Below, one piece after another: positions 33,511-57,751 of a stretch of DNA of 64,000 bases. The stretch comes from Takakia lepidozioides (Eukaryota > Plantae > Bryophyta), in NCBI GenBank assembly GCA_030704615.1, contig CM060733.1, positions 31,000,001 to 31,064,000 on the forward strand. Direction: 5' to 3'. Below the pieces are notes generated by a model, which was not told where the DNA came from, did no database searches, and worked only from the letters and a program-made list of their open reading frames with translations. Positions within the stretch are counted from its first letter, which is position 1, and each line of letters begins with the position of its first letter. The position numbers were made by a program, and so were the translations under genes.

Positions 33511-33511
33511 A

Positions 33512-34272: not shown

Positions 34273-36105
34273 CTTAGCCTGTGCACACAAGGGGACAAGA
34301 TTTATGTTTATCAAGGAACTCAGATTGATTTGAGTGGAGAGCAGTTGGACGAGTTGATTGCATACTGGGAGTCAGGCATTGGCAATAGACAACAAACTGC
34401 AGTAGTTGGCGTTGAGGGCCTCAATATTGTTTTGGACAGTCAGAACACTCTTGGATCAAGCAGTTCTGCAGCTGTAGGTGAAATACCAAAGTGGGTGGAA
34501 GCTAGGTTTGGAACACAGCCAAAGACAGCCCCGGGGACCAAGGTGTTCAGCCACACGGCAGTGGTGTACTGGAGCAGAGGAGCATGAGCTACACAAGTTT
34601 TTGCAATCAGACATGGTTGCAGCCGGACACGCTCTACACGAGGCAACCACAAGCGGGGGTTCATTAGCAATGAAAAGTTTGTGCTGCTTGAAGGAGATGC
34701 AGTCATTTGCAATGAGGACACCCGCAACCGTCTCAAAGCTTTCGAGTTGAGAGACTGTCAGACCCTACCTTTATTTTCTTTAGTATTCAGTGAGCGGGAG
34801 ATAGGGAAGTATTGCTTTGTCTCTACCTGGCAGAAAGAGGAGGAGGGTTGGTTAGAGCGAGCTACTGTAGCTTGGGACAAGGTTAGTGGTTTCTGGACAT
34901 AGATATACCCACTAGAAGCATTTGTGTCATTTACCACTGGGGTAACGACTCATTTTGAGTCGTAAAAGTAAAAAAAATGGGATCGACTGGAAGTTACAAA
35001 CGACTAGTTACAACAGACGTGGTAGTTGGGTTGGACATCCAATGATTGGAGTGGTAAAGGACGCAGATGCGCGAACAACTGCTCAGCGATTAATGCGATT
35101 AATGCTGAAGAACCACGTGGCGTAACCAGGCCGGCCGCCCGTGTATCTGATCTTTTGGGCTGACTTTGACTTCTCCCTCCGGATGAGTGGACTGACTCAC
35201 CCGGGGCGCGGTGACACATGGACGCGGACGTGGATGCGGACGTGGACGCCGATGTGGTGGCGCCGCGACGAGCAGCAATGTTGCCGCGTGGCCACGGGCC
35301 CAAGACGCCACATCGCAGTCGGCCACATAACTTGGAGTGTTGCATGTCACGTGGCAACAGCGATTGGCGAAGTCGACCGCACAACTGCGGGCAGACAAAT
35401 CCACGGGGACCACGTGGAGAGTGTGTGGGTCAACGCGTGGCGTCGTCCCCATGCAATGGCAGTGAGGGGTACGACTGCTAGTGGAAAGACGTAGAGTGTT
35501 TGTGCCCTCTCGGGACTGCTTTGGCCATCTCCGCTGCCACTGTGCTAGTTGGTTGCACTATAGTAGGAAAGCACTGCAAACAAGCACTTGTAGTGGTTTG
35601 TGTGAGTTGTCCAAATGACCTGCATTCTAAGCTGAAAATATGGTTCTGATGCATTTTAGTGGTTTTAGTGGTTCACCCATATGCATGGGGAATTGAGAAG
35701 CAATGATACTGGGCGAGACTCAGAACACAAACCACGATGCATGCACAACATCACGCTAATGAACCAAATAGACGTAGTCCAGGGAGACCAAAGACCATCA
35801 CACATACACATAGAAGGTGGACGGATACGACGACAAGTCAAGAAAATGTGATATTACATTCAAATAAGAGACCGTCACGGCACACCTGCGTATGAGCAAG
35901 ACAAAATGCCAACATACATGGTTGCCGGACATCACATAAACTGTCATGGCCCAAATGTTCAAAACTGGTAACGTGAGTATCATACACACTTCTATGAGTA
36001 TCATTACACACCCAACATGGACTACAAACATGAAATCTCACTTGATACTTTCACCTTTCCTCATACTCTTCTCTGGCCACAGAGTCACCGTGCCTTTCAC
36101 GTGCG

Positions 36106-38202
36106 CTAGTGTGGTCTGGGGGGGGCATCGTCCACATTTGGGCAAGGCAATGTAACACTTGGAAGCATGATCTCGTGGACTTTCACCTTGTACCACCCGG
36201 AACGAATGTCCTTGCAGTGGAACTTATCAACCCCGGCTATTCCCACCACTTCCACCTTTGCGGCGGCTGTCTTTGACCGCTTGTCATTGGGGTTCAGGAG
36301 AAACACGGGATCTGATATCTGTAGACACTAACATCAGGGTCCACTCAACAACAAACATAGCAATGATAGGGTGAAAGTCAAGTGCAGCTAGGCATGGAAA
36401 CGATCTTGGTTGCCACAATACTGAATCAGCAGCAAATTCACGGTGTACCAATGTACCTTGAAGCAAGGCTTGTCGCTGAGGGTGGCAACTGAGGAAAGTT
36501 GCCCACGTGTCTTCAACTGCAGCAGCAAAAAGAGGTTTAGTCAGACGGATAAGAATAACATGAACTCTGGTGGCTGCAATGGTATAAACACACCTCCACA
36601 GAGCAAGCTAACAAACACCCTGCTCAGACCCTGCACACTACAACTTCCTGGCAAAAATAACCCTACTAGAAACCAGGAAAAGCAAGGAGCCATGAATGCA
36701 TGCCTGGGGAACCACGTCCTGCTGCGATGATGGTGCCAGGGACAGCCCACTCCTCTTGCTCACCTGCAATGAATACACATTGCAATGCTTCAGGAAGTGT
36801 ATCCATAAAGGAAACCAACCAAGTAAGTTTGCGGGGAGGGGCTGGGAACAACCATACCTTGGGCGCTGCCTCCTCATGCCGGGGGGCAGATCCGGAATGC
36901 TGGCGCGGTAGCACTATGGTCCTTGGCGCAGGACCCACCTTCTTCACATTCGACCCCAGTGCCACTCCCTGTGGTCCCTGCAAAACATATAGTGCCAGCC
37001 TTGCGTGAGAGGGCATCCGGGGGGAACAAAACAAACATCTCTTTTGGCTTCGATGTCATGTTGCAAACAATAAGGTTAGTTTCACCTGCATGGGCGCAAA
37101 AGCACTTCCCCCAACGACCCCATCCTCTCCCACATTCGAGCTTCCAGTCGGGGTCAGCTTTCCGCGTGCTTGTGAAGACACGCACATCCTTGGAGCAAAA
37201 CAAATCTTGGCAGTAGGGCCAGACTGTTTCTAAAAGGTAGTCTGAATCGGGCCCCTCGCTGACATTGCCAGTGACATCAAACGACAATGGATGGACCATG
37301 TTCAAAGGGGAGTTTCCCCTCCCCTTGTGTGGTGAATCATCCACTAAGAGGGTGTTGGATTCGTTAAATCCAAAAAATTGCGACCACACCCTCGACAGTC
37401 TCTTCTATAAGTTCTGTACGGTAGGCCCTTTTGTGGGGTGTGGCTCTGTCAAGGGGTCACACTCCTCTTGTGACCACACAAAGAGGGGAGAACCCTTGAC
37501 CCCCTGCATCACCACTTTCAAGATGTCTGCAACATTCCCCTTGGAAGCACAGGACCATATCCCAACGTAGAAATACCGGAAGAGAAGGTTTAAAAACTCG
37601 CAGACCTGGGGCCTTGGGAAAACAAATTTGTTGGTGGTCAACACCCATGGCCAATGACGCCTCGGGTTGGGCTGAAAGTTAGGAATACAGTGGCACAGGA
37701 TCCCGTTCATGTCTAGAACAATTAGTTTCGACTTTTCAATGAAAGGAGCTTTTGAAGGGGTGTCACGGGGTCTCACCTTAGTGGGTTGGAAGACAACAGT
37801 CACCCCGGAGGGCAAAGTTTCGGTCCCCCTGCAGCCTGGACCAGGCAAACTACCACCCTCTCCCCCTACAGCTTCCCCTTTTCCCCCATCATCAGCAATG
37901 ACCCCCCCATCGTCCATGTCATCCCCATCAACTTGCTGGACCTCTCCCTCTTCAACGAGTGGACCCTGCCCCCCACTGTGAATATCATCAACAACAGGCT
38001 GGACCTCGGTCACATCCCTACCCACTACAATTACTTCCTCCTTGTCAGGTACAATGGTCGCAGCAGGGGGGTCTTCTATAATGCCACCCGTCACACCCCC
38101 TTTTTGCCCAACGTGCAAAAGCCGCCGGCTACAGGATGCTAGGCATGCGAACTCCGGCACAACACGCCTCCTCTGCACCCCACTCCGTCCCAACCAGTGC
38201 AA
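36106..38202 (-). pseudogene. CACTA-borne gene: FCP1/SCP-homology (NIF, HAD-family) phosphatase domain plus a downstream Tnp1/En-Spm-like C-terminal exon
   Basis: KLIVLDMNGIL..FVFPRPQVCEFLNLLFRYFYVGIWSCA..LFVWSQEEC..(in-frame TAG 37407-37405)..VWSQF..NESNTLLVDDSPHK..NMVHPLSF match the NIF fold motifs. The exon at 36306-36106 (VEVVG..KFHCKDIRSGWYKVKVHEIMLPSVTLPCP) resembles CACTA ORF C-terminal domains. Confidence 0.8.
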
Positions 38203-39258
38203 AACAACCGTGCATGCATTGACTGCCGTCTTGCTTTCTCTCTAGGCATTTGGGGGTCTGTGATCTGCTACACGTAAGTGTCTTTGAAGGCGATGATCAA
38301 AGGATCCGGTCACTTGCAGTTGCCGTCTCAAGGGCAGCATTGCAAGAATCACAATTAAGTAAGAAAGATGGTGGAAGAAGCTGCAAACTGCAAATGAGTG
38401 AAGTGGCAGGGCGATGCTCCATTCTTAACATGCTCCCCTTCCCGCCATGGTGATAGAGCCACACAAATGGACTCCCTTCCCGCCACGGTGCAATTTCAAG
38501 GCAACGGAACAGGATTGTTCGCCGAAACGTGATTTGGAGATCGCGGCCAAATCCGTGATGGAATTCGACCTTCCAATACATGATTTCCTCAATCCGTCTC
38601 GCTCTTCCGCTGAGGGTGGCATTGGGCGAACTACCCCCTGCTACAAACTTTTGATCGTAATGTGATTTTGAGAGACGAATCGCTGTAGCCGGAAATTGTG
38701 CAGACGATGACCGCCGATGAGTGGAGTTCACTCATTATGGCCTAAGACAAGTGGCGCAGGTTCTGGCCTTGTAGTTGGGTTGTTCACACTTCAATGCACA
38801 CATTTCATACACATTCAACCATATGCCCAAGATCACGACGTCCTGAATCGTGAAAATTGAAATTCCACGTACGTCCTCCGATTCGTCACACACACAAAAA
38901 CTGTAGAGACAGGTGGTTTTCCAAGATGTCGTTGTTTGAGTCGATTTTGGTCATTTCTCTCAGTGTCTTGTTGAAAAGATTCTAGTTATGATGGGAAGCA
39001 TCTTGATGGCTTTTAAATGGTTTGCTGTTGAGTGTAACTTTCCATCATGTTCTGGAATCTACCAGTTGGTATAAAATGTCAATTGTCTTCTCTGCCAAAG
39101 GATGTGCGGCTGAACCTTTCAAATTGAGATTGCAGGAGGAGGGAATTGACGGTAGTGAAATGGGAGTGGCAGAGCCAAATTGAGGAGTCTCTGCAAAGGA
39201 GAATCCGGCCCCCTGCAACGGCGTGCACAAACTGCATTGAAGAGGCTCCCCAACAAAA

Positions 39259-42200
39259 ATGAGTTCCCCTCGCCCATGCGGAGGACTTCCAATTAATCAC
39301 CCCTGTAGACAGAACACCCGAGATGACAGGTTGTGGGAAAGAGAAGTGGCACGTGCCCGAGCCCTTGGGCTTTCAAGGATGCCATGCCCATGTGAACGTT
39401 GTTTGGGCACTACAAGTAGATTTGAGGACAGTGTGCGCACACATCTCTTTCACCACAAAAGACATGAAGCATTTCGGGTGTGGATTGGAGATGGACCTGC
39501 AGACGAAGACGATGAGGAGTGGGCACAATTGGACAATGCACACCCCCGGGGGAGCCATACAGATAGGCCAGACAAGGACTATGTCATGGGCGCATGACAT
39601 GAACCAGGCATGGACGGAGGGGTGGAGATTACTCGAATGTAGCAGGAAGCATTCCACATCATGGACGATGCTGAAGAGGGGGACGGCGCTGTGACAACTG
39701 GGGATGGTGATGATGCAGGAAATGAAAGCATTCACGTGGGGGAAGGCGTGGAAGGAGGTGGAGATAGAGATGAGAATTCAGCACACATGACACTAGAAGA
39801 AGCATGTCTGCCAGTGTACGAGGGATGCAAATCCACAAAGCTTGCTGCCACCATGCTGTTGATGAACTTGTGCACAACCCACGGTGTCTCAGACCATTTT
39901 GTGGACGAGTTGTTCTCTTTGCTTCAGCTGAACTTGCTTCCTCAACCAAATGAAATGCCAAAAAGCTGTCACATGGCCAACAAAATGATTGGGAAGCTCG
40001 GCCTCAACTACGTGAAAATACATGCATGTCCAAAAAGACATGTACTTTTCAGAAGAGAGTACAAAGACGCTATGGAGTGCCCCAAATGCGGTGCAGCCCG
40101 ATACCATGATGTGGGCAGGTTACAACAGCCAGCCAAGGTGTTGAGGCACTTTCCCCTTATCCCCCGTCTATTACAATGTACAAATGCAAGACCATTAGTG
40201 AGCTCATGACTTGGCATTCCAGGAATGCCTCAAATGATGGTTGGTAAGGCATGTCCCAGATTCCCTTGCGTGGAAGCATATAGATGCAACTTGGCCCGAT
40301 TTCGCCGAGGACCCACGCAATGTGCGATTGGCTGTATCTACGGAAAGAGTAAACCCATACGGATCAAAGAGCTGCACATGGTCCACATGGCCCATGCAGT
40401 TGGTGGCATACAACCTGCCACCATGGTTGACAACAAAGAAATTCTTTGTCATGTTGTCTCTTTGATTCCAGGCAAGGAGTCCGCGACAAATGCAAACATA
40501 GATGTGTATTTGCAACCATTGATTGAAGAGCTACAGGAACTATGGATTGGAGTTGAAGCTTACGACATTTTGAAACAGTAGGGCAACGGAGTTTCACCCT
40601 CCGTGCCATACTCATGTGGTCAATCCACGATTTCCCGCATATGGCCTTGTTGCGGGTTGCAAGACGAAGGGCTACAAAGGGTGCCCCATTTGTGGGCCCT
40701 ATGTGGTTTCACGGCACTCAAAGCCATTGGGGAAGACAATATACATGGGGCATCGACGTTACCTTGCAAGAAACCACCCCTACCGACGAGCAGGAAGGCA
40801 CTTCAATGGATGTGTTGAAAAGAGAATGGCACCAAATGCTGTGACACCGGAGGAGACATTGCAATTTGCAAAGGAGAAAGAGGCGTTCATGGAGATTGGA
40901 GGGAGAGAAGGAAGTAGTGCGGATCCAGCCATGGAGCACGGGGTGAAGCGCCGGACAATCCTTTGGGATTTGCCATACTGGAAGGTGCATGAATCCCCCG
41001 CCCCCCCCCCCCCCCCCATTCACTCACTTTCTTCACATTGTGCTTCCTGGAATTACCTTTACTGTCAGGAGTCCTTCCACCAACTCCTAAGTCAATGTAA
41101 CTACTATGCAGTAGATGTTGAGGTCGTACACCTCACTGTGGAGAGGATTGTGCAGTTGTTGAAAGCAGAATGTAGTAACATGGACAACTTCTGCCACATA
41201 TTCTACTATTTTTGCCCATAGAACTTGGTCTCATGGGAGGACATCTGGCATTTCAGAACCTCTTGCAGCGGTACCTCCTAGACCCCATGCATTGTGAGAA
41301 GAACTTCTGCGAGAACATTCTGAAGACGATCTTGGGGAGAAGGATACGATAAACGTACGAAATGACATGGAGATTGAAGGGATACGGTCACATCTGTGGC
41401 TAAGGCCTGATCCAAATAGACCTCGCAAAGTGCTCATGCCAGCAGCATTATACGTCCTGACCAAATCAGAGCAAGAGCATTTTTTGAAGACATTGGGAGC
41501 CATGAAAGTGCCAACCGGATTCTCGGGTGCTTTCCAAAAGCATGCCATAAACAAGAAATGGTCGGGGATGAAGTCACATGATCTACACGTGATGATGCAG
41601 CAGATTTTGCCAGTGTGCATTCGGGGTACGATGGCGCCGAGTCCTCGAACAGCCATAATGCGTGTAAGTCGAGTGTTTAGGAAGATTTGTGCGAAGGTGT
41701 GGGATCCGAGGGACATTACATCGTTGCATGAGGATGTGGCTATGACCCTATGTTTGCTGGAGAAAGAATTCCCTCCATCATTCTTTGACGTCATGACGCA
41801 CTTGCTAGTGCATCTTGTAGAGGAGCTGCATGTGTGTGGGCCCGTAACCAGCCGTTGGATGTACCCCATGGAGAGGTACATGAAGGATCTGAAGGGGTAT
41901 GTACGCAACATGGCACGGCCAAAGGGGATTATGGCGGAGGGCTACATCCGCGACGAAGCCCTGGGCTTCATGACAGAGTATATGTCTTCATTTGATGCAA
42001 CACAACGACGGGAGTGGGACAAGAACGAGGAAGAAGGAGTTGTAGGCGAGGTCCTAGAAGGTGGTGGAACAAAGCGTGCCATGAGCCCGCGCCTTCGGGA
42101 TGTGGCACATGATTATGTGCTGAACAACACAACAACCATGACACCATGGAGACAGTGGGTGTAAACTTACATCCCTCCTGTGCTATTCTTAATGGTCTTT

Positions 42201-43277
42201 GTATGTTGGAATTACATATATATTGTCACAAGTCATTCCGGCCACTATGGGAGTGGGATCGTGTACTAACAGGGTGCTTCAGATGACTACAGAGGGTGTT
42301 TCGTAGTTGGTGTTGTTGCTTGCAAGTGATTATGAAGTAGGCTGCATCACTACAGTGTGCTTGAAATGACACAATCTGCATGTGGCATGCATGTACAGTA
42401 CGGTGTTGGTCCAGGGGACTGAGTTGCAGATTCTATTTGGTTTCTGCCAGAAAGTACGCAGCAGAGAAGGTCCGCCTGAAAACGGAACGGAGTGCATTTG
42501 CAAAAGCATGGCGGAGGGGCGGTTGTAGGCGCAGATCCCCGGTGGAGTACCCCACAACAATGGAGGAGCTGCAGCCCTTTACAGTGTGGGTCAGATCTGC
42601 AATTGCAGTGTACGCATCAGAGAACGAGGACCCAGATGAGGGCATGGTGAGTCTGTCATTCCCCCCAGGGCTGATTGCCACTTCGTACCGGTCAATGAAA
42701 GCATATGGCAATCATTATAGAGTGGACGATGCCAACACCAGCCTCCTGGTGACTTATGACAACGGAGTGGCATCATTTTTTGAACAAGAGAGTAGGAGCT
42801 ATGCACGAGATCGGAATCCAATTTCATGCCCTGTGCAATATGTAGGAGTCATCAAAGAGATCCTTAAACTAGACTATGGTCTTGTAAAACCAATTCTATT
42901 CCGTTGTTCTTGGGTAAAAGCCAACATGGTAGGAGAGAATGCCACCATGAAACGAGATGAGTACGGGTTCCTCCTTGCTGATTTCAGAAATGCTACCACC
43001 ACAAGATAAAGAGCCATTCATCTTCCCATCGCAAGTTGAGCAAGTTTTCTTTTCAGATGACACCCATGCGCCGGGATGGAAGGTGGTTCTTCACAAGGAC
43101 CCCCGGGCCAAACGAGTCGTGGCCGACGTCCATGATCTGGACCTAGGAGAGAATGGCGACCACGAGGGTCTGAGAGAACCACAAAATCTACCAGATACGG
43201 CCGAACCAGTCTCTTTGGAAGGAGCAGTTACCTTTAATGAGGAAGTCATTCCAGGGTTGATAATTATCGCAAGGTAA
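39259..43277 (+). pseudogene. CACTA Tnp2-family transposase (Transposase_21, DUF4218, DUF4216), several frameshifts
   Basis: MPCPCERC, YVKIHACPK..CPKCG..KVLRHFPLIPRL, DSLAWKHID..FAEDPRNVRLA, YNLPPW, DVYLQPLIEELQELW, ILWDLPYW, GMKSHDLH, FPPSFFDVMTHLLVHL, RWMYPMERY, EPFIFPSQVEQVFF. Confidence 0.95.
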
Positions 43278-45180
43278 ATTGCAGATATGGGCAGTGAAGG
43301 GGAAGATTCTTTGGATATAGATAGTGAGCCCAACTGAATCTCAGCGTCCATTAAGCTGGTAGCTCGTAGACGAGAGCTGTGCTAAGGACTCTTACTGTCC
43401 TTAGAACCCATTTTGTACAGTCCTGCAAGCGCGCAAGGGTGAGACAATTAATAGTATCGATAATGTCCCGGAATGTGGTCCGTACTGTCTTGTGAACAAA
43501 CCTATATTTACAGTATGATTGTAGTTCAGAACCAAAGGGCATATCCTTCAGCCTTGACGTCTTTGCGATCTTCTGCTGTGACGCCTTCTTCATAACTTGA
43601 GAAATGGAAAAGCAGCTACACCTCAAATTATTGCAAGGCCACTCAATGGCACTAAGAACGCTTCGAGTATGCTGTCAGAAAACTAGACGGGCAAAAACCC
43701 AATTCAGCAGCCTCACCTTGCGTGGATACTTGGGAATTGATACCAGAAGGGCATGCCCGTATGCGCGCTCGATCGTGCCTCCATCCAGCACATTCTGTAA
43801 ATGTTGAATGACCAAGACCCCAATGTTACACCCTTCTGAGAAGCCACTACACGCGCTCACAGTATACGAAGGCCTTGCCGTGTCAGGATTCGCATTCCCA
43901 TGTCCTGCCATGTCCGACAAAGCACTTGCATCCCTGTCTCTGCCAGGTGGAGGCAGCACGTATTAAAATATCTATTCCCCCAAGGCCACATTTGATTTAC
44001 CTCTTTTTGTGAAAGCCACGTCAGCAAATGTGCTGCCGAGTCATGGGTGCAATGAATGCGCAGTGGTTCATGGAGTCGTTGAGTCGACTACATATTCACT
44101 TTAATGAATAAATATCTTTATTCCATTAATCGAATTAGAAAAGGAAATTTGTAGTCGCATGTGCAGTAATTACAACCACTTGTAATTTTGGCTTTTTTCA
44201 AATTTTATGTATTTACGCAATTCGTAAAATAGCCCGGAATTCTGCTACGACTCCGGAGTCGTTGACACTTCTGTCCGCCGTCTGAAATGCCCCCGTGGGC
44301 CCACATTGTCTGTTTTGACTCTCCAGTAGTCCAGTTTACTACCAAGTGGTTCCCGGAGTGGTCGCGGACATGCAGTCGATTCGGAAAAGACACGAATGCT
44401 TCTAGTGACCTCCTACACCTTACCATCATGCAGAGCGAGGCACTTTGAGAGAAGTCTGGCAGTTGATAGCATAGATCAGGATTAGATCTTGTTTGGTCGG
44501 GCCTCTATTCTTCCCCTCCCTCTTTGTACTATTTTCATTACTTTGTACTTGTAGTTGCCAAAGCCTCTCTTGGTGGAGGCCAGTCAGTCCGGGGTTTTGG
44601 GCTGGGATATTCTGCAGGATCAGCACTGCAGATGGATTTGGTGTGGGGGTGGTTGATGTTTTGATTTCTTGTGTTTGGATCCCCCCAAACACCTGCATGC
44701 TTGAATGTGCGCCATGTTGGTTTTGTGTGGGTGCTTGCTTTCATAGGGATTAGGCCGGATTTGATCACCGGGCAATCCTAGAGTATGCTGTCGGTGGTGA
44801 GGCTAGAGTGATGACCAGCAAGACCACCAGTGTTTCTTCTATGGTGAGATTGGGTTGATGACCAGCCAACCATATAAGTACTTGCGGTGGATGCAGGTGC
44901 AGGTGCCCTGAGCCACTGGGATATGACCCTTAAATTGCAACAGGTGCCCATCCATGTCACTATTAGAATTAGTAATAGAGCCTTATAGTGTCACGTAGGG
45001 GAGGTGCACATTGTGAGTGTCATTACGGAGTTACCCAAGGGTTCTGAGGGGAGTACAGCTACAGGCAGTAACAATGAGAGTGGGTTCACAAGACGAGGGA
45101 TTTGGTTCAGACCACCTTCACCTCCACCCTCAACTACTGTAGAGTCTGACACAGACCCGAAGGCTTCATCAACAGGTGTG

Positions 45181-45775
45181 AACTGGATTGCCTGAGCTTC
45201 AGTAACCCCTTGGGTCACACTTATCAAGCGCCTCATACGAGTGTAAGCCTCTTGCAGGCTCTCACTGGATTTGCGCTGGAAGTCTTGCAAACTTCGCAGC
45301 TTCTCTGTCCGTACGCCTTGGTAGTTCCTCCGCAACTCGTGGAAGAACTCCACCACCGGGCTGAATCTAGGCACGTGTGTTGTAGTCGTGGCAGGAGGAA
45401 TAGTAGCACCTTCTGCAGAAGTACTGGCACTACTTGTTCCACTACTAGTGCTGGCAGTGGGAGGTATTGGTGCTGATGTCGCTACTGGTCACGTCGTGCC
45501 TCGAGTAATGGAGACGTAGTCAGGTGACCAATACATCCTCCACTCTTTAATCTCCGCTTCATGTCCTCACCTGAACTCGAGGTAATCGTCCATAGGCGGG
45601 CCTTCCAAATGCTGGAACAATCCCTTCCACGCCATGAATGGGGTGAACAGCTGTGGATTGCGCATCTGCTGCAAATCACATCAGCTGTCGAACTCCTGGA
45701 TAAAGTCATCCAGCTCGATTGTGCCCACAGCTCCAGAGTACCTGCGAGGCCCCTTGGTAGCTCCATACATCTCCT
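45181..45775 (-). pseudogene. Inverted gag segment of copy 1 (continues at 57720-57750)
   Basis: Reverse complement of copy 2 ~49830-50440 (RRNYQGVRTEKLRSLQDFQRK..AYTRMRRL). Confidence 0.92.
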
Positions 45776-46130
45776 TGTCAAGTTAAATAAGCACAGTGTG
45801 AAACTAGCTAGAATAAAGCTAGTTATTTGTATTTAACACTTGGATTTAGGTCAAGTGTTAAATCAGGTGTCAAGTTTAGTTTGACACCTGACCCGTCTTA
45901 TCTTCACGAGAGCGGCAGTCGCGCAGCTCATCTTTCTCGAGTTGAGCCTGCGCGACCGAGCTCCTTCATGCGTTTAGATTTGAGTGTGCTTATGATGGGA
46001 GTGTAGGTTGTTGTGGGGTGGAGTCCCCATAGCTTGGGGTGCCCCTGGCTCGACTTCTGTTTTAAAGAGTGATAGCGATGGATTCATGTTGTTTCTGGTG
46101 TGAGCAGTGTGTTTTCTAGTTTTCTTATCA
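45776..46130 (+). repeat. 5' terminal repeat A1 of copy 2
   Basis: 45776-46128 equals 57282-57634 except for one C/T; ends TTATCA. Confidence 0.95.
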
Positions 46131-46144
46131 CTCGAGAAAGATGA
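46130..46144 (+). promoter_or_regulatory. Putative self-priming PBS
   Basis: ACTCGAGAAAGATGA is the exact reverse complement of 45928-45942 inside A1. No tRNA-type TGG.. PBS is present. Confidence 0.8.
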
Positions 46145-46369
46145 CGCCGTATCTAGTTTTCTAGTGCTAAGCTAGATGTGACGTTTTTGTTTTTAAGCAC
46201 TATTATAATATAGCTTGGTCACGAGAGCCGGTAGTTAGACTGGCTATGTGTGCCTAGTGGAGCATAACAGGAAGGCAAGAACCACTCAAAGCGTCGTTGC
46301 AGCAGTTCTAACCTCCTGGGAATGTAGCGGGTCCAAGCTTTTTACAACAAGCAGGTGGGCTGGACCTGC

Positions 46370-47085
46370 TGTTTGGGTCTAAGAAGACTGGGTCGGCGGA
46401 TAGGCCTCTGTGGTTCCCAGGTGCAAAGGCCCCGTCTTGGGCTGGATGGATCTTTGGTTGGTGACTATGGTTTCGATCCACTGTCCCTGGGAAAATCTCC
46501 AGAGTATCTGCAGTTCGAGCTGGATTCACTGAACCAGAACTTGGCTAAGAACCCTGCTGGAGTCGTGATCGGAACCCGTCTTGATAAGAAGAAGGATATC
46601 AACCCCACTCCCTTCCGACCGTACAGTGAGGTGTTCGGCCTCCAAAGGTTCAAGGAATGCGAACTGATCCACGGTAAATGGGCAATGCTTGCCATTGTTG
46701 AGAGTTGTCTGTCGAGACGTTCACTGGCGTGACATGGCAAGATGCTGTAAAGGTGGAACTTGCTGATGGTCCCTCTTACTTCGGTCTCTCGTTGCCGTTC
46801 AGCATCTCTGCTCTTGTCTGGATTGAGACTCTTGTGGTAGGATACATTGAGTTCCAAAGGAATGCCGAGTTAGACCCAGAGAGGCGTCTGTATCCTGGTG
46901 GCAAGTACTTCGATCCCCTCGGACTGGCAGCTGACCCCGAGAAGAAAGAGGTTCTAAAACTCGCCGAAATTAAGCATGCAAGGCTGGCCATGGTTGCTGC
47001 TTTGGGTTTTGCTGTGCAAGCTGCTGCTACAGGCAAGGGTCCCTGGACAACTGGGCCACGCACCTGAGCGAATCCACTCTCACTT
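46370..47085 (+). pseudogene. LHCB4: Captured Lhcb4 (CP29) chlorophyll a/b-binding protein sequence, frameshifted
   Basis: [25 protein letters not shown], the CP29-specific [79 protein letters not shown]. An A23 run follows at 47116-47138. Confidence 0.93.
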
Positions 47086-47169
47086 GCCTGCTGAAAGCAC
47101 CCATCAGCTTTCTTGAAAAAAAAAAAAAAAAAAAAAAACTGTTGGCCTTGTCAGTCTTGTTCACCAAAA

Positions 47170-47502
47170 TCAGTGGGACGTGTAGGCATTACCAAGGCAC
47201 CAGTGAAGGTTGTTGACTTTACCAAGCGAAGTGTGGTAGAGGGCGAGAATGTTGTCATTTGCCACAACGTTATGTTTCCTTCGGCTCTCTACTACTGCCA
47301 TCATGTCACAGGAACCAAGGTGGTGCAGGCGTCGTTGGCAGCTGTAGATGGATCAATCATTCACGCAGTCGCCATATGTCATTTGGATACCAGTCTCTGG
47401 GCATCAGAGCATCCTGCCTTCACGGCTCTCAACATTATTCAGGGAGCCGAAGCATGCCATTGGTCAACTCAGAATGATCTCATCTGGGTGCCCTCCCACT
47501 GA
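47170..47502 (+). pseudogene. Captured BURP-domain C-terminal fragment
   Basis: Four CH motifs: VICHNVMFPSALYYCH..AVAICHLDTSLWASEHPAF..EACHW..DLIWVP. Confidence 0.9.
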
Positions 47503-48344
47503 TGAGGTCCGACCTCTGCTCTCGTTGCTACCGTTTCCAAGTAGTTCTGGGGATCGTAAGGTCAGCTCAGTGGAAAGTACTCTTGCCTATTTCCCTGCCA
47601 ATCGTCCTTTAACCTGCAACGGGCCTCTTGAATAGGCACATATATCAGCCATCAGCAACAATTTTGCATGCATACCTACATAGGTTTTCGGTGTTGATGC
47701 CCAGACACAAGGAATTTCAATTTGCTGTAAAGTGTTAGGCTGGTAGCAGCAGTCTTCTGCATGACTTCTCAAAATCTACCGCTGATGTAGAGCTGAAAGG
47801 CATGTGGAAATGCTTTGAGACTATGTCGGAGATCATCAATCTCGGATGCGCTTAAGCCCAGGCGCTCGAGCTCTGCCGTTGTCCCCAATTCGGTGATGCA
47901 GGGCAATCCGTTATCGCACGCCTGCTGCTCCAGGGTGTGATACCCCATCCATAACTGAGGTCGAGTCTTGGAGTTGAGAGTTCTTGGTGCCTGGAGAAGC
48001 CTGGAGGGGAACGGCCTCGGGAACCCATAGATAACCTGGGAACAGGTTGTAATGGCGAGAACGTTTTGGTGTTAAAAAAAAAAAAAAACCTTTTGATCTA
48101 ATTTAAATGATTTAGAGCCTAACTGTTCATAACTTTGTCAGATGGACTCCGTTTGACTCAGTTTTTGGGAGGATAGCTGCAGAAAGGGGAAATCTACCTA
48201 CCTAGATTCTGTTTCTGTTTTTGGGACTCTGCTAAAAATCTATGGAATTTTTAGAGTGTGAGTGTGCCATAAAAGATCCACAATCCTGTCTCTAGAACCT
48301 GTGCTGGTCTATATGAGAGACAAATCTGTGGATGTACTCCTTGC

Positions 48345-49095
48345 ATGGCTGGGGGAAATGAGGACGTAATTGAAGGGCAGGTCTCTTCTCTTAGCCATGC
48401 ACACAAGGGGACAGGATTTATGTTTCCCAAGGAATTCAGACTGATTTGAGTGGAGAACAGTTGGACGAGTTGATTGCATACTGGGAGTCAGGCATTAGCA
48501 GTAGACAACAGACTGCTGTAGTTGGCATTGAGGGCCTCAATATCGCCTTGGACAGTCAGAACTCTGTTGGAGCCAGCAGTTCTGCAGCTGTAGGTGAAAT
48601 ACCAAAGTGGGTGAAAGCTAGGCTTGGAACACAGCCAAAGACAGCCCCGGGGACCAAGGTGTTCAGCCACAAGGCCGTGGTGTACTAGAGCAGAGGAGCA
48701 GGAGGAGCTACACAAGTTTGTGCAATCAGACATGTTGCAGCCGGATACGCTCTGCAAGGGCAACCACGAGCGGGGGTTCATCAGCAATGACATGTTTGTT
48801 GTGCGTGAAGGAGATGCAGTCATTCGCAATGAGGACACCCCGCAACCGTCTCAAAGCTTTCGAGTTGAGAGACTATCAGACCCTACCTTTGTTTTCTTTA
48901 GTATTCAGTGAGCGGGAGATAGGGGAGTATTGCTTTGTCTCTACCTGGCAGAAAGAGGAGGAGGGTTGGTTAGAGCGAGCTACTGTAGCTTGGGACAAGG
49001 TTAGTGGCAGGTTTCTGGACATAGATATACCTCCTACACCTTACCATCATGCAGAGCGAGGCACTTTGAGAGAAGTCTGGCAGTTGATAGCATAG
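48345..49095 (+). pseudogene. ORF0 upstream of gag, unknown function (homolog in copy 1 at ~28465-28515, 34278-34909, 44411-44475)
   Basis: Both copies encode MAG.NEDVIEGQVSSLS..SGEQLDELIAYWESG..RNRLKAFELRD..WLERATVAWDKVSG..LREVWQLIA*; disruptions differ between the copies. Confidence 0.6.
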
Positions 49096-49619
49096 ATCAG
49101 GATTAGATCTTGCTTGGTCGGGCTTCTATTCTTCCCCTCCATCTCTGTACTATTTTTATTACCTTGTACTTGTAGTTGCCAAAGCCTCTCTTGGTGGAGG
49201 TCAGTCAGTCCGGGGTTTTGGGCTGGGCTATTCTGCAGGATCAGCATTGCAGCTGGATTTTGGTGTGGGGGTGTTGATGTTTTGATTTCTTGTGTTTGGA
49301 TCCCCCCAACACCTGCATGCTTGACTGTGCGCCATGTTGGTTTTGTGTGGGCGCTTGCTTTCATAGGGATTAGGCCGGATTTGATCACCGGTCAATCCTA
49401 GAGTATGCTGTCGGTGGTGAGGCTGGAGTGATGACCAGCAAGACCACCAGTGTTTCTTCTATGGTGAGGCTGGGTTGATGACCAGCCAACCATAGGAGTT
49501 CTTGCGGTGGATGCAGGTGCAGTGCCCTGAGCCATTGGGATATGACCCTTAAACTGCAACAGGTGCCCACCCGTGTCACTATTAGATTAGTACTAGAGCC
49601 TTATAGTGTCACGTGGAGG

Positions 49620-52550
49620 AGGTGCACATTGTGAGTGTCATTACGGAGTTACCCAAGGGTTTTGAGGGAGTACGGCTACAGGCAGTAACAGTGAGAGTGG
49701 GTTCACAAGACGAGGTATTCGGTTCACCCCACCTTCACCGCCACCCTCAATTACTATAGAGTCAGACACAGACTCGGAGGCTTCATCAAGGTGTGCACTT
49801 TCATTCACCATTGTTGTGGGACGACATGGAGGAGATGTATGGAGCTACCAAGGGGCCTCGTAGGTACTCTGGAGCTGTGGGCACAATCGAGTTGGATGAC
49901 TTTATCCAGGAGTTCGACAGCTGGTGTGATTTGCAGCAGATGCGCAATCCACAGCTATTCACCCCATTCATGGCGTGGAAGGGACTGTTCCAGCATTTGG
50001 AAGGCCCGCCTATGGACGATTACCACGAGTTCAGGCGAGGACATGAAGCAGAGATTGAGGAGTGGAGGATGTATTGGTCACCTGACTACGTCTCCATTAC
50101 TCGAGGCACGACGCGACCAGTAGCTGCATCAGTACCAGTAGCTCCCACTGCCAGCACTAGTAGTGGAGCAAGTAGTGCTGGTACTTCTGCAGGTGGTACC
50201 AGTTCAAAAGTGCTACTACTCCTCCTGCCACGACTACAACACATGTGCCTAGATTCAACCCGGTGGTGGAGTTCTTCCAGGAGTTGCGGAGGAACTACCA
50301 AGGTGTACGGACAGAGAAGCTGCGAAGTTTGCAAGACTTCCAGCGCAAACCCAGTGAGAGCCTGCGAGAGGCGTACACTCGTATGAGGCGCTTGATAAGT
50401 GTGACCCAAGGGGTTACTGAAGCTCAGGCAATCCAGTTTTGGTATGGAATTCTGGACAAGGAGCTCAAGAGAAGGGTGCGAGATGCAACCTTGTTACAAG
50501 CAGCCCAACCCACATTAGCAGATGTGTTTCTGCTGGCTGAGCGGATTGAGCTCAACATGGTGGAGGAGCGAGTTGTTACAATTGGATTTGGCAAGGACAT
50601 GCCTGCACGGGGCACAGCTGTCAGCCCACAGGCACAAGGGACTGCCCAACAGCGTGGTCAGGGGGGCAAGGTGCCCAGCCCAAGTTCCATGGAGCTTACA
50701 GGGGACCTCAGGTGCAGAGGCCCGTGCATCTTTTGCAGGCCAACAGCAACCAGGGGTGATATGTTGGACATGTGGAGGACCCCATGTCAAGAGAGATTGC
50801 CCAGAGAGTGGCAGAAGGCCGGCACAAGCACAGCCTGCACAGTTGCAGTGTGGGCATTGTGGCAAGTATGGGCATGGAGATGCCCAGTGTTATGACTTGC
50901 ATCCTGAGTTGCGCCCAGGCCAGTTCCAAGGGAACAATGGTGGCCGGGGGCGAGGTGGACCAGCCCAGAGAGGACGAGGTGGTCGGGCACGAGGTGCAGG
51001 CCAAGGGCAAGCTCAACATGGCCAAGGACGCGGAGGTCAGGGTGTTGATCAAGGCATGGCCAACCGGCTTCAGCAGCTAGAGCAGAGGCTCGCTGCCATG
51101 GCTATAGCTCAGGCGGTACCGGCTCCCAGGCGGGATGGTCCACCTCCTGCTCCCAAGGGAGGAGATATGGGAGGCATGGGATTTATGTGCGGAGCAGCAC
51201 TACCACTAGAGCAGGTGGAGTCTGCTGCAGCCGTGACTCGAGGAGCAGCACGAGTTCCTGAGCCACGAGGTGCAGAGGTGGAATTGGATCCACAGCGTGG
51301 GGAGGCAAGCCGTCAGGCGAGGCTTCCTCAGTCATTCACATTGGCGGAGACTGTGTCGACGCCATCCATGGCACCTAGTTCTCGCCCGACTGTTACCGAG
51401 GCGGAGGTTACTATGCCATTGGGGAGAGCTACACGTGCAGCATGACTCCTGCTGCCAAGGCTAGTGCGGCCGGTGTGTTATTGGGGGCAGCCACCTCTGT
51501 GTGTCAGGCCCCACTGTTCTCGGCAACAATGATTGCGACGCCGGGGGTGAGACCAGCTGCAGTGTTCAGACTAGCAGCAACACTCTGTGAGAGTGGGGAG
51601 GTCACTTCATCTTCTGCGGAGTTAGTGGAAGGTGTAGTGGCAGAGGGATCCTCGGATTTGAGGGTCAAGACTGCCACGGCTGCGCCATGGCAAGCTGCAG
51701 CTGCCAGGTTGACGGAGCTGCCAGCTAGGCCAGCCTTTGAGCGCGCCACGGTGACACCTGGAGTTGTCTTGTTAGACAACCAGGGAGGCATTTTCACTCT
51801 GAGTGGACCGGCAGGCAAGAAGTACCGGCCACTGCGGGTCTTGTTGGACTCGGGAGCTCAGCCACTGATGTTGGGCAGAGCTGCTATTGCAGGTTTGGGC
51901 CTCATGGAGGCGGATATGGAGCCTTGTCCTTTCCAGATACAGACATCTCTGGGAGGATCAGAGCAGGCTCGGGCATGACACGGCATCAGTTGGCCATTAG
52001 ACTGCAGCCGGATCATCCTAGAGATGGCTCAGTGATGCGAGCCAAGGCCATTGTGACAGACGCGGTCTCTTACGATGTCCTCGTTGGTGGGGCAGTGTTA
52101 TACCCCATGGGCTTCACCCTGGACTTTTGGGAGGAGTCAGCATCCTACAGGCCTGGATGGCAGTCAGGCGATGGTCGCCGTGCACAGCTCCCTGTGACAT
52201 TCATTGGGGGTATAGCGGCTGCCCAGCGGGGCAAGATGCCAACACTAGCCGCCTTTACAGCTGCAGTTAGTTGGCCTGGAGAGTTGCTGGAAGGCAATGC
52301 CCATGCAGAGGATGTGCCACCTCCAGCAGAGCAGGATGACATGCATGGTATGGCGGAGTTGCCTGCCATGGTTGCTCACACTCCATTGTGGGGTACGAGC
52401 AAGGATTTGCAGCAGGTTGCTGATCGACGGGTGCAACAAGCCTGGGTAGAGGCTTTTGTACCGTCAGAAGAGGAGGAGAGTGCGGGTATTGCACCAGGAC
52501 CACCTCAGTTGTCACCATTGGATACCACACCTATTGTGTGGCAGTATCCG
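49620..52550 (+). pseudogene. gag (two zinc knuckles) and aspartic protease of copy 2
   Basis: Capsid-like ELRRNY..FQRKPSESLREAYTRMRRL, CWTCGGPHVKRDC, CGHCGKYGHGDAQC, protease VLLDSGAQ (~51840) and YDVLVG. The start is approximate; several 1-nt frameshifts. Confidence 0.88.
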
Positions 52551-52559
52551 GATGAAGGC

Positions 52560-53525
52560 ATTTGCCTTCTGGACTTGTTTGGCGGGATCAGCACTGGATT
52601 GGCTGCTGTGCTACAGGCAGGTGTGCGGGTAAGGTGTTACCTGTATGTGGAGAGGGATGAGACTGCACGACGCGTCTCACTGCGCCATGTTGCTCAGTTG
52701 GTACAACAGTACCCTGCTTTGTTGCCAGTGTCTGCAGTTCGTGGATACCAACAAGCCTTGCCAGCAGACATTTCGTTGTTGGGGGCGCCGGATTTGGAGC
52801 AGGTTGGCTCCATTGATCTGGTAGTGGCAGGTTGGCCCTGCCAAGGGCATTCATCAGCCGGGCATGGCAATGGATTGCGAGACTCGAGGACGGGTCTGTT
52901 TTGGGAGATGGTGCGGATTTTGCGCCACTTGCAGCTTCATCAAGCTGTATCGCCAGCATACATCTTGGAGAATGTGCCACTGATGGGCGATTCTCGGGCC
53001 AGGGTGATGGCCAGTGTGCATCAAGTCCGGTCGTGGCTTGGGTCAGCAGTGTTGCTGGATGCAGCTGCAGTGGGGTCACGGGCTCATCGTCCACGGCTTT
53101 GGTGGACTAACTTGATGCCACCTGCACTACTCAAGCGTGCATTTGATGGGGTGCAGCGGCCAGCACACCTCACCGTGGATGGCATTTTGGACACAGGGAG
53201 GCAGTCTCAACGTGTGAGACACGATGACCGTTCGCCTTTGGCAGTGGTCAACAGGGTGGGTCAACCACGAGCAGCATTACCTACACTGCTCAGCTTCCCA
53301 GGATCCCATGCTTTTCGGGATGGTGGACCTGGCCTCCTGTGGGATGCTCAGTTGCAGCAGTTAGTGGAGCCTAATGCCGACGAGCGAGAGCGGGCTATGG
53401 GGTTTTCCACTGGGACCACGGCGGTGCCTTCTCTTTCTGAGGCATCACGTCGTCAGGTGTTGGGGCAAGCAATGGATCTCAATTGCTTGACCTGGATTAT
53501 CAGCTTGGCTATGGCTGAGCAACGT
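52560..53525 (+). CDS. C5 cytosine DNA methyltransferase domain (DNMT3-like) inside the retrotransposon polyprotein
   Basis: Uninterrupted frame with motif I LLDLFGGISTG, II YVERD, IV DLVVAGWPCQ, GLFWEMVRIL, VI YILENV, VIII SRAHRPRLWWTNL, IX ERERAMGF and X RRQVLGQAMD. Confidence 0.95.
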
Positions 53526-53804
53526 AGAGTGCGGAGTGCACTCCCTTCATGGTCTCTCTGCCTACCGAGACGGTACAGGCAGCGAGTGGGGGGAGCCGGT
53601 GAGGACCACGGGGTGTAGACATCCATGGCACACGTGGGAGGTGCTCGAGGTTCAGAGGGAGTTGGCAGCCAAGGCAGCTGTGATGGATGAGGTTGGGGAT
53701 TCTTCTCGGGATGAGGAGGTTCTCAATGATGAGATGATGGGGCAGGATGAGGCCTTGTCATGACTGAGCAGGAAGGGAGTACTGCTCAAGAGGTTGCAGC
53801 ATAG

Positions 53805-56800
53805 CAACCACGGGACGCGTCCTCTACCTCTAAGCCCACTGGACTTAAGGTTGCAGTTACGGAGGACAATTGGGAGCCTGACATTGGACCCATTGTCACC
53901 GGAGGAGAGAGACGACGTATACGGCGGTTCCTGAGGGCTTACAGAATTGTTTTGCCTTCAGTTTGAAGGACTTGGGAGCACTGAAGGGTCAAGAGATTGA
54001 ATTGAGTTGGCCACTGACACGCCAATCTTTCGGAGACCCTATAGATACAGTGACATGGAGAGGTCCTTGATTCAGATGAGAACTCAGGATCTCTGGGAGG
54101 CAGGTTTGGTGGAGCTCTCTGGTGGAGAGTATGCTTCAGCCACAGTGATGCCAGCCAAGAAGGATGTCTATGGCAATTGGACGGAGAGACGTATGTGCGG
54201 TGATTACCGGCCTGTAAATCGTCAGACCAAGTCCGATAGGTATGCCATGCCGACACCAGAGGAGATCTTTGATGCCATTGGGCATTCCAAGGTCTTTAGC
54301 ACGTTGGATTTACGATCCGGATATCACCAGTTGCCGATCAAGGAGGCGGATAAGCAAAAGACGGCATTCTGGGGGATCAATGAGCACGGGAAGGATTGCC
54401 TATACCAGTGGCGGTTCTTACCATTTGGGCTTAAAAACGCTCCCGCTGAGTTTCAAAGAGTCATGGACAGGATTCTAGCAGGGGTGGAGTTTGCTCGGTG
54501 CTACATAGATGACATCATCATCTTTAGTGCTACGGTGGAGGAGCATGAGAGACACCTTCAGGGGGTATTTGAGCGCTTGAGGGCGCACGGATTGAAGTTA
54601 CATCCGGGAAAGTGCAAGTTTTTCCACAACCAGATTGAGTATCTGGGTCACATGATATATCCTGGAGGATTGGGGGTACAGCAGACTAAGGTAGAGTCCA
54701 TTGCACAGGTTCCACGCCCCACGGATGTGAGCCGAGTTCGAGCTTTCATGGGGTTAGCAAACTATTACAGACGGTTTGTTAAGGGATTTAGTGCCATTGC
54801 AAAGGCTCTAACCAAGCTGACCAAGGTGGACCAGGAGTGGCAGTGGGAAGATGAGCAAGAACAAGCTTTTCAAGAGCTCAAGGCGAGGTTGACCTCGGCG
54901 CCCATCTTGAGACGACCTATCAGGGGGCGTCCTTTTCAGCTGCATACAGATTGGAGCATGCTGGGGCTTGGAGCGGTGCTCACACAGGTGGATGATGAGG
55001 GAAGAGAGTTCGTAGTGGCTTATGCTAGCCGCTCGAACAATGCTGCAGAGTCTAAGTATAGCTCATATGAGGGAGAATGCTTAGCTGCAGTGTGGGCCGT
55101 GGCACACTTCAGGTGCTATCTATACGGCAATCTCTTCACCCTTGTCACGGATCACCAACCACTCAAGTGGTTGATGGAGTCAGACAAGCTTACGGGGAAG
55201 CTTGCACGGTGGGCACTCATCCTTCAAGAGTATGACTTTCAGGTGGTGCATCGACCGGGTTTGGTCAATCGCAATGCAGATGGGTTGAGTCGCAATCCAT
55301 GCACGAGCCAACAGGATGACACTGGAGCTCGGTGGCATGGTGAGACGGACGAGGAGATGGTGCCCGGATGGCATGCATCTGCATTTCTGTGTATCTTGGC
55401 AGCGGAAGGCCAGGTTGGACCTGCAACAGGGATGACTGTAGATCAAGTGTCTGAGGACCCTGAGGCCAGCAATGAGCAAGGTGGCGCCAAAGATATACAT
55501 GAGGATTCAGTTGTGTTGGACTACCTCCGCACTGGAGACACGGCAGCCACTGTGACTGCCAAGGAGAGGGATCGGATCCTACAACGAGCCAAGAGGTTCA
55601 AGTGGGAGGGACACACCTGCTCCGAGTGTGGGAGGATGGTCGAGTGAGGATTGTGCCTCACCCAACACAGCGGGCACGGTTAGTGCGCCATGCCCATGAG
55701 GAGTTGGGGCATTTTGGGGTGCGACGCACTCATAGTCTACTGCAGGGGCAGTATTGGTGGCGTGGTATGCACACAGAGGTGCAACAATTTGTGGCTAGGT
55801 GCATGGTGTGTGACAGGGTGCGTGCTTCATTCAACGCCCCTACTCCACAATTGCACCATCTTCCGATCATGGGATTGGGCTACAGGTGGAGTCTTGACTT
55901 CGCAGGGCCATTGCCACTGACCATGCGCCACAACAAGTACGTGTTGGTGATGGTGGAGCACTTCTCCAAGTGGATTGAATTGGTTCCATTGCCTGATAAG
56001 GCTAGTGAGGGAGCTGCGTATGCATTCTTGGATTGTGTGCTTAGCCGATTCGGTGCTCCAGCTGAGGTACTCACGGACCAAGGGAGAGAGTTTTTGGGGG
56101 AGTTTCAGGCGTTGTGTGACAAGGCCTTGATAGACCACCGCACCACTTCTCGGGATCATCCTGAGGCCGATGGCTTGGCAGAAAGAGTTGTTCAGACAGT
56201 AAAGAGGGGTTTGCGCAAGTATGGCTTGCAGAAGGGACACCTAGGAGATTGGGACCTTCAGTTACCCTGGTTAGCCATGGGCTACAGGTTCAGCAAGCAA
56301 GCATCACTTGCCTCCTTCTCACCATACTTTCTTCTCTTTGGCCGAGAGCCGGATTTGCCTACATCCATTCGCAGAGAAGCTGCTACAGTTCTTAACCTTG
56401 ACGATCCGGACGTGTGGGCACGTGCATGTGAGCAGCGTGCAGAGTTGTTCAAGAGAGTCATGCCCATGGCTTTCGAGAACCTTGCCATTGCACAACACCG
56501 TGATACGTTGAGGTATGCTACCATACGTGGTGGGGGCTATCGTCCTGGGGTTTGGAGATTCAACCCTGGTGACTATGTCTATCTGCAGCAAACTGCTCCT
56601 ACGACCCTGGATGTGACTGCAGGACGTGTTATTTTGAGGATTCGAGAGGTCTTGCCCTCAGGCGTCTTGGTCTTGGAGGGTCGGGATGGCATAACTTGGA
56701 AGGACCATGTGCGTAATTGTGCGCCATGTCACCTTCCAAATGTCGATGGCAGGATTGACCCAAACCTGGCAGTGGTATCTGCAGGTTTGAGGTGCATGTT

Positions 56801-56935
56801 GTGTGGGTCTGCTAAAGGGGCAGCCACCATGCTGGTGTGTGATCGATGCTCTAGAGGTTGGCATATGGGATGCTTGACTCCACTCTTGAGATGGTTCCGG
56901 ATGGGGATTGGTTATGTCCACATTGCATTGGATAG
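53805..56935 (+). pseudogene. RT-RNase H-integrase-PHD of copy 2
   Basis: [81 protein letters not shown], then C4HC3 PHD. Frameshifts at ~53945-54000, ~55610 and ~56885. Confidence 0.95.
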
Positions 56936-57179
56936 TGGGAGTGGATACAACCATGGAAGGCTAACAAGAAACGCAAGGCCCAGCTACAGGAGACCTTGAA
57001 TACACGAAGTCCTGGCTCAAGTTCACAGATTGCAAGACGACGACTAACGATGGGGCTACTCTTGTACCCGGCCTCTTGGTCTATAGAGTTTGAGTACGAT
57101 AGGGACAGTGATAGAGGACTTAGTACGGCTATGGCTATTACGTCTTGTAGCTATCTGGAGGTAGAAGGACCTATCCACC

Positions 57180-57194
57180 AGCTAGGGGGGCAAT
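57180..57194 (+). promoter_or_regulatory. Polypurine tract
   Basis: AGCTAGGGGGGCAAT immediately before TGTGGT of repeat X1. Confidence 0.75.
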
Positions 57195-57719
57195 TGTGGT
57201 AGACTACTTTATTGTGCATATATGTGTGGTGTGGTTTGGACAGCGATGTAGTTGTGTAGCGATACGTATGCGCACGACAGCTGTCAAGTTAAATAAGCAC
57301 AGTGTGAAACTAGCTAGAATAAAGCTAGTTATTTGTATTTAACACTTGGATTTAGGTCAAGTGTTAAATCAGGTGTCAAGTTTAGTTTGACACCTGACCC
57401 GTCTTATCTTCACGAGAGCGGCAGTCGCGCAGCTCATCTTTCTCGAGTTGAGCTTGCGCGACCGAGCTCCTTCATGCGTTTAGATTTGAGTGTGCTTATG
57501 ATGGGAGTGTAGGTTGTTGTGGGGTGGAGTCCCCATAGCTTGGGGTGCCCCTGGCTCGACTTCTGTTTTAAAGAGTGATAGCGATGGATTCATGTTGTTT
57601 CTGGTGTGAGCAGTGTGTTTTCTAGTTTTCTTATTGTGGTAGACTACTTTATTGTGCATATATGTGTGGTGTGGTTTGGACAGCGATGTAGTTGTGTTGC
57701 AATACGTATGCGCACAACA
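57195..57719 (+). repeat. 3' terminal structure X1 (57195-57279) - GC - A2 (57282-57634) - X2 (57635-57719)
   Basis: X1 and X2 are 85-bp direct repeats (3 mismatches); A2 equals A1; the X1/A2 junction reads CAGCTG. Confidence 0.93.
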
Positions 57720-57751
57720 TCCTCCATGTCGTCCCACAATAATGGCGAAGA

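Follow-up and report, generated by a model that had tools for sequence, protein, structure and literature searches.

Two copies of one retroelement in a 64,000-nucleotide stretch of Takakia lepidozioides DNA (the window, meaning that whole stretch) carry, at the edge of their left repeat, a short sequence complementary to a segment inside that same repeat. This raises the question of whether the element primes reverse transcription from its own RNA, and of how such priming relates to the arrangement of its repeats, which are split and permuted. Self-comparison and Pfam searches place one of these, copy 2, at 45776-57719 between duplications of TCCT (45772-45775, inside an inverted gag piece of copy 1, and 57720-57723). 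It lies on the forward strand and has the order A1, primer-binding site (PBS), captured host cDNA, gag, C5 cytosine DNA methyltransferase (DNMT), reverse transcriptase (RT)-RNase H, integrase-PHD, polypurine tract (PPT), B1, GC, A2 and B2, with broken reading frames. The 355-bp A1 repeat (45776-46130), running from TG to CA, forms the left end and contains the predicted promoter and self-primer together with R and U5; it is identical to A2 (57282-57634) at 352 of 353 positions, 3 nt being missing from A2 at its joint with B2. B1 (57193-57279, ending GACA) directly follows the PPT (57180-57192), B2 (57635-57719) forms the right end, and the B1/A2 joint falls in a palindrome, GACA-GC-TGTC (57276-57285, neither strand), which is the predicted integrase attachment site. 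An interpretation of A2 as a solo LTR that had landed in the LTR of a different family was ruled out by the single duplication spanning 45776-57719, and is also contradicted by copy 1, which has the same internal pieces.

Coding domains recovered from copy 2 comprise gag spread over three frames (49760-51445; PF03732, E 7e-4), a DNMT domain in pol (51741-53618; PF00145, E 4.8e-13), RT-RNase H (54001-55647) and, by Pfam and alignment, a DDE integrase (H2C2, rve; DDE triad present) with a C-terminal PHD finger (55503-56999). A DSG protease-like motif was seen by direct inspection in an overlapping frame (51379-51978), with no Pfam match. Pfam detected no chromodomain in 55503-56999, where the PHD finger is found instead, and no match to a tyrosine recombinase in 35 of the 39 ORFs in the window that reach 150 aa or in 48 further ORFs or pieces. 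The leader downstream of the PBS holds host gene pieces that differ between the copies (46145-48070 versus 26496-28158): in copy 2 a captured, frameshifted chlorophyll a/b-binding cDNA fragment (46328-47067; PF00504), with a 23-A tract after it at 47116-47138, and a captured BURP-domain gene fragment (47095-47502; PF03181, E 1.5e-27), and in copy 1 a kinase piece (27930-28097; E 4e-4). The BURP piece points towards a land plant as host.

The preliminary description of this locus had implied a Tf1/sushi-type element, an identity that the domain content does not bear out, as the integrase ends in a PHD finger without a chromodomain and its RT groups with DNMT/PHD elements in a clade of their own. 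This clade comes from a quickly built tree of 89 RT-RNase H rows, which had no Tf1, sushi or Tcn1 reference; it comprises 57 rows at SH-aLRT 99, among them all 11 labelled DNMT, and excludes all 14 chromodomain-labelled rows. Klebsormidium proteins P0150, P0196, P0209 and P0211, the last of them DNMT-bearing, lie inside this clade. The nearest named proteins come from Calypogeia, Riccia, Marchantia, Sphagnum, Klebsormidium and Closterium. Relatives were taken as the best 80 of 548 matches from a metagenome scan, and 30 of these 80 loci contain a DNMT match. Judged by sequence comparison, the element is a Ty3/gypsy retrotransposon with a DNMT and a PHD finger, related to KnitGypsy-Dnmt3.

The pairing described previously was exact in letters and coordinates. 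In copy 2 the predicted self-primer (45928-45942) is a perfect reverse complement of the PBS (46130-46144) over 15 of 15 bp, and in copy 1, which is older and about 86% identical, 26274-26290 pairs with 26479-26495 over 17 of 17 bp. All four segments lie on the forward strand, as does the copy-1 A1 repeat (26124-26479), which starts at A with no B upstream. Two qualifications apply to the wording of the description. The PBS, said to lie just after the terminal CA, does adjoin the repeat end, but its first base (46130, 26479) is the A of that CA; likewise, the sequence called the 5' repeat is a repeat, but only part A of an element with the split arrangement A1...B1-A2-B2. Scoring 63,949 window positions against the copy-2 repeat turned up two exact 15-base reverse-complement matches, one at 46130 and the other, unrelated, at 10567, with nothing longer than 15 bases; for the six positions adjoining the repeat end, the chance expectation is about 2e-6. 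Exchanging primer and PBS between the two copies reduces the strict run to 8. The covarying pair that had been pointed out, T45934-A46138 in copy 2 and C26282-G26487 in copy 1, is present as described. By itself this single swap is poor evidence for pairing, because it consists of two transitions, a kind of change also made by methylation damage.

More informative is the behavior of this pairing across the family, which the description had asked to see conserved. We scored 14 copies with an A1-PBS region, 12 from the best 80 of 548 loci plus the two window copies, counting L039 and L047 as one insertion and excluding duplicates L003 and L023 and the cut-off L031. These fall into four sub-families in which the primer letters differ and yet match each sub-family's own PBS, with best strict Watson-Crick runs of 17 and 15 in the window copies, 17 in L009, 15 in L055 and 12 in L047. 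A primer set against the PBS of another sub-family gives a strict run of at most 8, and A2+B2 controls give 3-8 in all 11 cases. In 11 of 14 copies the pairing sits at a common location, the 3' end of the primer falling at repeat position 161-180; it is absent at the primer site in the other three (L060b, L062b and L025b), and a strict run of at least 10 is reached in only 7 of the 14. A further sub-family, L012, has the PPT and palindrome, without a resolvable A1 or B2.

Covariation analysis of nine aligned copies (window family plus f1) showed that 12 of 17 pairs change on both sides, a level reached by none of 500 shuffles, although the number of independent events is small because most changes come from the one split between window and f1, and related sequences can beat shuffles. 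In this alignment 87% of cells are paired, as compared to 31-50% when the partners are slid. Copying of the primer into a new PBS would itself create covariation, which would favor priming over a merely structural role. Unphased contigs indicate that both primer and PBS variants are present in the population, at sites 204 bp apart: C at 45934 makes up 87% of the depth in run X1, and G at 46138 makes up 27% in run X1 and 100% in run X5. In the unphased contigs of run X5 the T primer variant accounts for ~9% of depth while the A PBS variant is absent, which counts against self-priming. Concerning tRNA primers, none of the 14 copies has a PBS beginning with TGG, as tRNA-primed plant Ty3/gypsy elements in REXdb do, and ARAGORN found no tRNA genes in the whole window. 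Half-tRNA primers would be excluded solely by the change of PBS letters between sub-families. Taken together, these comparisons suggest that the element very probably primes reverse transcription from its own RNA.

We then consider the repeats themselves, beginning with their layout among the best 80 of 548 loci. B1-A2-B2 is found in 29 of the 80, corresponding to 22 insertions once shared flanks are merged; five others have B1-A2 cut short, two have part of A plus B2, 23 (20 insertions) end at B1, and 21 have no B match, mostly through contig ends. For the eight insertions with both ends visible, the 4-bp duplication is perfect in five, matches at three of four bases in two and is absent in one (L055). 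All 32 loci compared have CA-NN-TG at the B1/A2 joint, always with two nucleotides between CA and TG; this spacer is GC in 11, AC in 11, AT in 6 and GT in 4, presumably the pattern of methylated-CHG deamination on both strands of CAGCTG. At the A2/B2 joint, a tally of 17 insertions that leaves aside the f2 joints (too decayed to class) and L040 (an insertion at the joint) gave nine clean joints and eight altered by small deletions or extra bases. The extra bases number 1-5 nt, and several match the PBS start or PPT end, although at such lengths some of the matches may reflect chance or slippage. The A end and B start overlap by 1-2 nt in the window family, f1 and f3.

Read-derived contigs contain ends and joints of several kinds. 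In run X1, 32 contigs depart at the B end (57279) into unrelated flanks (agreement 0.37) and 10 more depart one base further on; runs X5 and X7 contribute two such contigs each. In five contigs an A end is followed by the B start, and its CA is preserved. Right ends consisting of the PPT and B only are about 20 in number when counted independently, and the four with a visible left end are A...B. The mirror permutation, A-B-A...B, was seen at none of 12 independent left ends, although mirror forms could be partly hidden if A-B-A collapses through recombination or short-read assembly.

These observations can be accommodated in a single scheme. Transcription would start near 45928, judging from TATA spacing in relatives, and the first 11-15 nt of the RNA, whose pairing with 46130-46144 is observed, would serve as primer after being freed by cleavage as in Tf1. 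The minus strand would start at, or at most 3 nt from, the CA at 46129-46130 and the plus strand at the PPT before B1, so that the cDNA expected from the PBS and PPT positions would be [B-GC-A]-internal-[B-GC-A]. It follows that the cDNA ends are predicted at the B start and A end, which lie mid-copy in the integrated element. Joining of the two ends would give rise to the A/B joint that is observed, and a 2-nt staggered cut at the left palindrome would leave the two CA-3' ends that are seen in integrated copies and that would be inserted with the observed 4-bp duplication. A...B forms could arise from a one-repeat circle or by later B1xB2 recombination. A symmetric cut of a two-repeat circle, which has two palindromes, was rejected because no mirror form was seen at the 12 left ends; the cut must instead favor the left palindrome, for which the circle model gives no reason yet.

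We regard it as rather likely that cDNA end-joining and an integrase cut at the internal palindrome produce A1...B1-A2-B2, and the reading as a whole, that of a broken, self-primed DNMT/PHD Ty3/gypsy element whose layout comes from joined cDNA ends and a cut at the internal palindrome, as likely to about the same degree. The broader proposal, that a green-plant clade of methyltransferase-bearing Ty3/gypsy elements is self-primed, has shifted its integration site away from the cDNA ends to a palindrome inside the repeat, and hence uses an end-joined circle, opened by a DDE integrase, as its normal, obligatory insertion precursor, has in our judgment an even chance of being right. The larger finding is the permuted structure, which is probably circle-derived, with the self-primer helping to locate the cDNA ends.

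The alternative that survives best keeps self-priming and dispenses with a covalent circle. Here the integrase would cut the leftmost palindrome of a linear cDNA and hold both cut ends, while the free A and B ends would be joined by host repair or by an end-to-end jump of the RT, before or after insertion. The one-sided permutation would follow if integrase loads from the left end, and the 1-2 nt overlap between A end and B start in the window family, f1 and f3 suits an end-to-end jump. This route has no direct support of its own, however, its product is identical to that of the circle model, and right ends of the PPT-B-only kind, where the visible forms are A...B, are explained more simply by a one-repeat circle or B1xB2 recombination. 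We consider it unlikely.

A different objection concerns the duplex, which could be a structural leader fold acting in packaging, dimerization or translation control, with something else, such as a tRNA fragment, as the primer. The leader RNAs of the two window copies fold more stably than any of 200 shuffles (z of -5.0 and -3.6), giving a predicted multi-helix junction made up of the primer:PBS helix, an R stem (5' strand 45939-45948, partner 46047-46056; conserved in sub-family f1) and a U5 stem (5' strand 46067-46075, partner 46125-46133), all on the forward strand. The U5 stem also contains a second compensatory pair between copies, A46074-T46126 in copy 2 and T-A in copy 1, which priming would not template. 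While both features suit a structural fold, in four sub-families the duplex ends exactly at the repeat CA, no single tRNA could follow PBS letters that change completely from one sub-family to the next, no other PBS-like site follows the repeat, and the cDNA end implied by the A2/B2 joint is the same CA. A purely structural role is accordingly quite improbable in our estimation, as compared to use of the duplex in priming. In the predicted window folds, sequence downstream of the PBS does not pair with the LTR. A second primer-like site is present in the U5 of relatives.

Where the putative primer would be released depends on the same fold. In the lowest-energy structures of the window copies, 11-14 primer:PBS pairs form (11 bp in copy 2), and the last four primer bases move into neighboring stems, so that the primer may be released by a cut after either 45938 or 45942, at a length of 11 or 15 nt, respectively. 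The GAGT/ACTC segment (45939-45942, 46053-46056, 46067-46070 and 46130-46133) can pair in two registers, and a switch between them, like a mobile four-way junction, would change the modeled primer helix between 11 and 15 bp. One deleted insertion, recovered as both L015 (3321-3602) and L038 (1541-1817), passes from integrase sequence into the repeat where the last four primer bases begin; the joint shows no microhomology and includes 1-2 foreign bases, and the insertion then continues to B2 without a PPT or B1. We take this to be what mis-jumped strong-stop DNA would give. The joint may mark the primer cleavage site, as a single event that was noticed after the fact.

The same primer sequence might also be supplied from elsewhere, since an identical copy is present in A2 at 57434-57448, near the RNA 3' end, or it might come from a separate short transcript. 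Spacing from the promoter speaks for the A1 5' end instead. TATA in f1 and f3 puts the start site at the primer 5' end, the first duplex base being number 27 and number 33 when the TATA T is number 1; on the same count the window has 45928 at number 30 from the aligned TAT at 45899, part of a non-canonical TATCTT (45899-45904, forward strand) that stands where relatives carry the TATA box and is the presumed promoter. The L015/L038 joint is likewise consistent with an RNA whose 5' end lies at the last four bases of the primer. A primer from A2 or a short transcript is thus very improbable, and a start within a few bases of 45928, near the 45926-45928 proposed in the preliminary description, is plausible from TATA spacing in relatives. 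Two adjacent inverted repeats (45831-45890) occupy the upstream part of repeat A and are kept in copy 1.

Least credible of all is that the split repeats were inherited, with B2 transcribed and copied as in PAT/Ngaro, or are artifacts of assembly or tandem duplication: the layout does equal that of PAT/Ngaro as given in the accessible text of PMC4157794, and B1 and B2 of copy 2 differ at 3 of 85 positions versus 1 of 353 for A1 and A2, but in four full loci the divergence between B1 and B2 does not exceed that between A1 and A2 (93/92, 88/79, 80/80 and 93/84%), the A2/B2 joint varies among insertions, B2 is present in L015/L038 though B1 and the PPT are gone, and the layout recurs in four sub-families and three independent runs.

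The closest known counterpart is KnitGypsy-Dnmt3 of Klebsormidium nitens (de Mendoza et al. 2018, PMC5890265), which, in the sections of that paper available to us, combines the gypsy domains with a C5 DNMT located in pol and has its repeats arranged as in a DIRS element, A-coding-B-A-B (Fig. 4c legend). Our element shares its RT-RNase H-integrase gypsy order with a DDE integrase, its C5 DNMT in pol and its A-coding-B-A-B repeats, as well as an RT clade common to Klebsormidium gypsy proteins, a link made by clade rather than by accession. Unlike KnitGypsy-Dnmt3, it resides in a land plant and has captured host cDNA in its 5' leader. The main text of PMC5890265 does not mention a primer site, a target duplication, a palindromic joint or any mechanism, although its figures or supplements may show a primer site. 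In literature outside subscription journals, nothing was found on self-priming or on how integration proceeds in the DNMT/PHD clade, and the DIRS-like layout is noted once in print, without a mechanism in the text available (PMC5890265).

As for priming, Tf1/Tf2, Tj1 and the Tf1/sushi group including plant Tcn1 are described in the accessible portions of 10.1101/2022.12.06.519325, PMC4600332 and PMC6317226 as having a PBS complementary to their own LTR beside the terminal CA, like the element analyzed here. As portrayed there, the Tf1/sushi group also shares the lack of a tRNA site and a multi-helix leader, the central helix in copy 2 being a predicted 11 bp, but only one of the two PBS-flanking helices of the Tf1/sushi pretzel leader is predicted here. 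Elements of that group are, in the same partial sources, chromoviruses with a chromodomain and ordinary terminal LTRs, whereas ours has a PHD finger, a DNMT, split repeats and a separate RT clade (in a tree without a reference for the group). In the text of Neumann et al. 2019 (PMC6317226) as far as available, plant self-priming is predicted for Tcn1 and the copia TAR lineage only, and the part of its supplement that was accessible gives tRNA primers for Chlamyvir, Phygy and Selgy.

As for layout, PAT, TOC, Ngaro and VIPER have the same A1...B1-A2-B2 split direct repeats, according to the available text of PMC4157794. In contrast to them, our element has a DDE integrase, TG/CA ends, a PPT, a PBS and a 4-bp target duplication, and no tyrosine recombinase was found in it. 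Integrase cleavage of palindromic 2-LTR circle junctions has been reported for foamy virus and HIV-1 (PMC1180852, PMC1905944, in the parts accessible), where, as proposed here, a DDE integrase cut of a palindrome gives two processed ends. In those viruses, as these excerpts present them, the palindrome is the end-to-end junction and its use a side path; here it is internal to the repeat, the end-to-end joint is imprecise, and every integrated copy seen is permuted.

If the preferred reading holds, plant Ty3/gypsy self-priming, predicted only for Tcn1, extends to an unrelated and widespread clade, one that ordinary LTR finders would be likely to overlook. With cDNA ends fixed by the primer site and PPT sitting mid-copy, the scheme would show how the DIRS-like repeats of KnitGypsy-Dnmt3, so far unaccounted for, could arise. 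It would also make testable the old question of whether circles can be a regular precursor for a DDE integrase, and may show a route from ordinary LTRs to split direct repeats.

The surroundings of copy 2 record several further rearrangements. Copy 1 is interrupted by a chromovirus, a CACTA element, copy 2 and a further insertion, and its other pieces lie at 28159-28515, 34273-34909 and 44408-45184, with inverted segments at 45181-45775 and 57720-57749; the rest of it (gag end, DNMT and RT start; 57754-61539, forward strand) is cut by another insertion at 61540. The inverted segments (45181-45775 and 57720-57749) are gag sequence with an adjacent ~400 bp deletion, and copy 2 landed inside the inversion. 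The nested chromovirus (28516-34272, reverse strand) has a Chromo domain (E 4e-12), a 5-bp duplication, CTTAG, and a truncated 5' LTR; the named proteins closest to it come from Riccia and seed plants, and its matches were mostly plant chromoviruses, none of them a named Tf1, sushi or Tcn1 reference. The CACTA-type DNA transposon (Tnp2, DUF4218) occupies 34910-44407 and contains a NIF phosphatase-like ORF at 37405-38241. An element beginning TGTCGCG (61540-64000) interrupts the copy-1 RT and carries a 9-bp tandem array at 62179-62425. Elsewhere in the window, a host ubiquitin-activating enzyme E1 gene spans 8153-14880 (pieces 8153-9622 and 14329-14880), and a 65-bp tandem array of about eight diverged units lies at 21963-22511.
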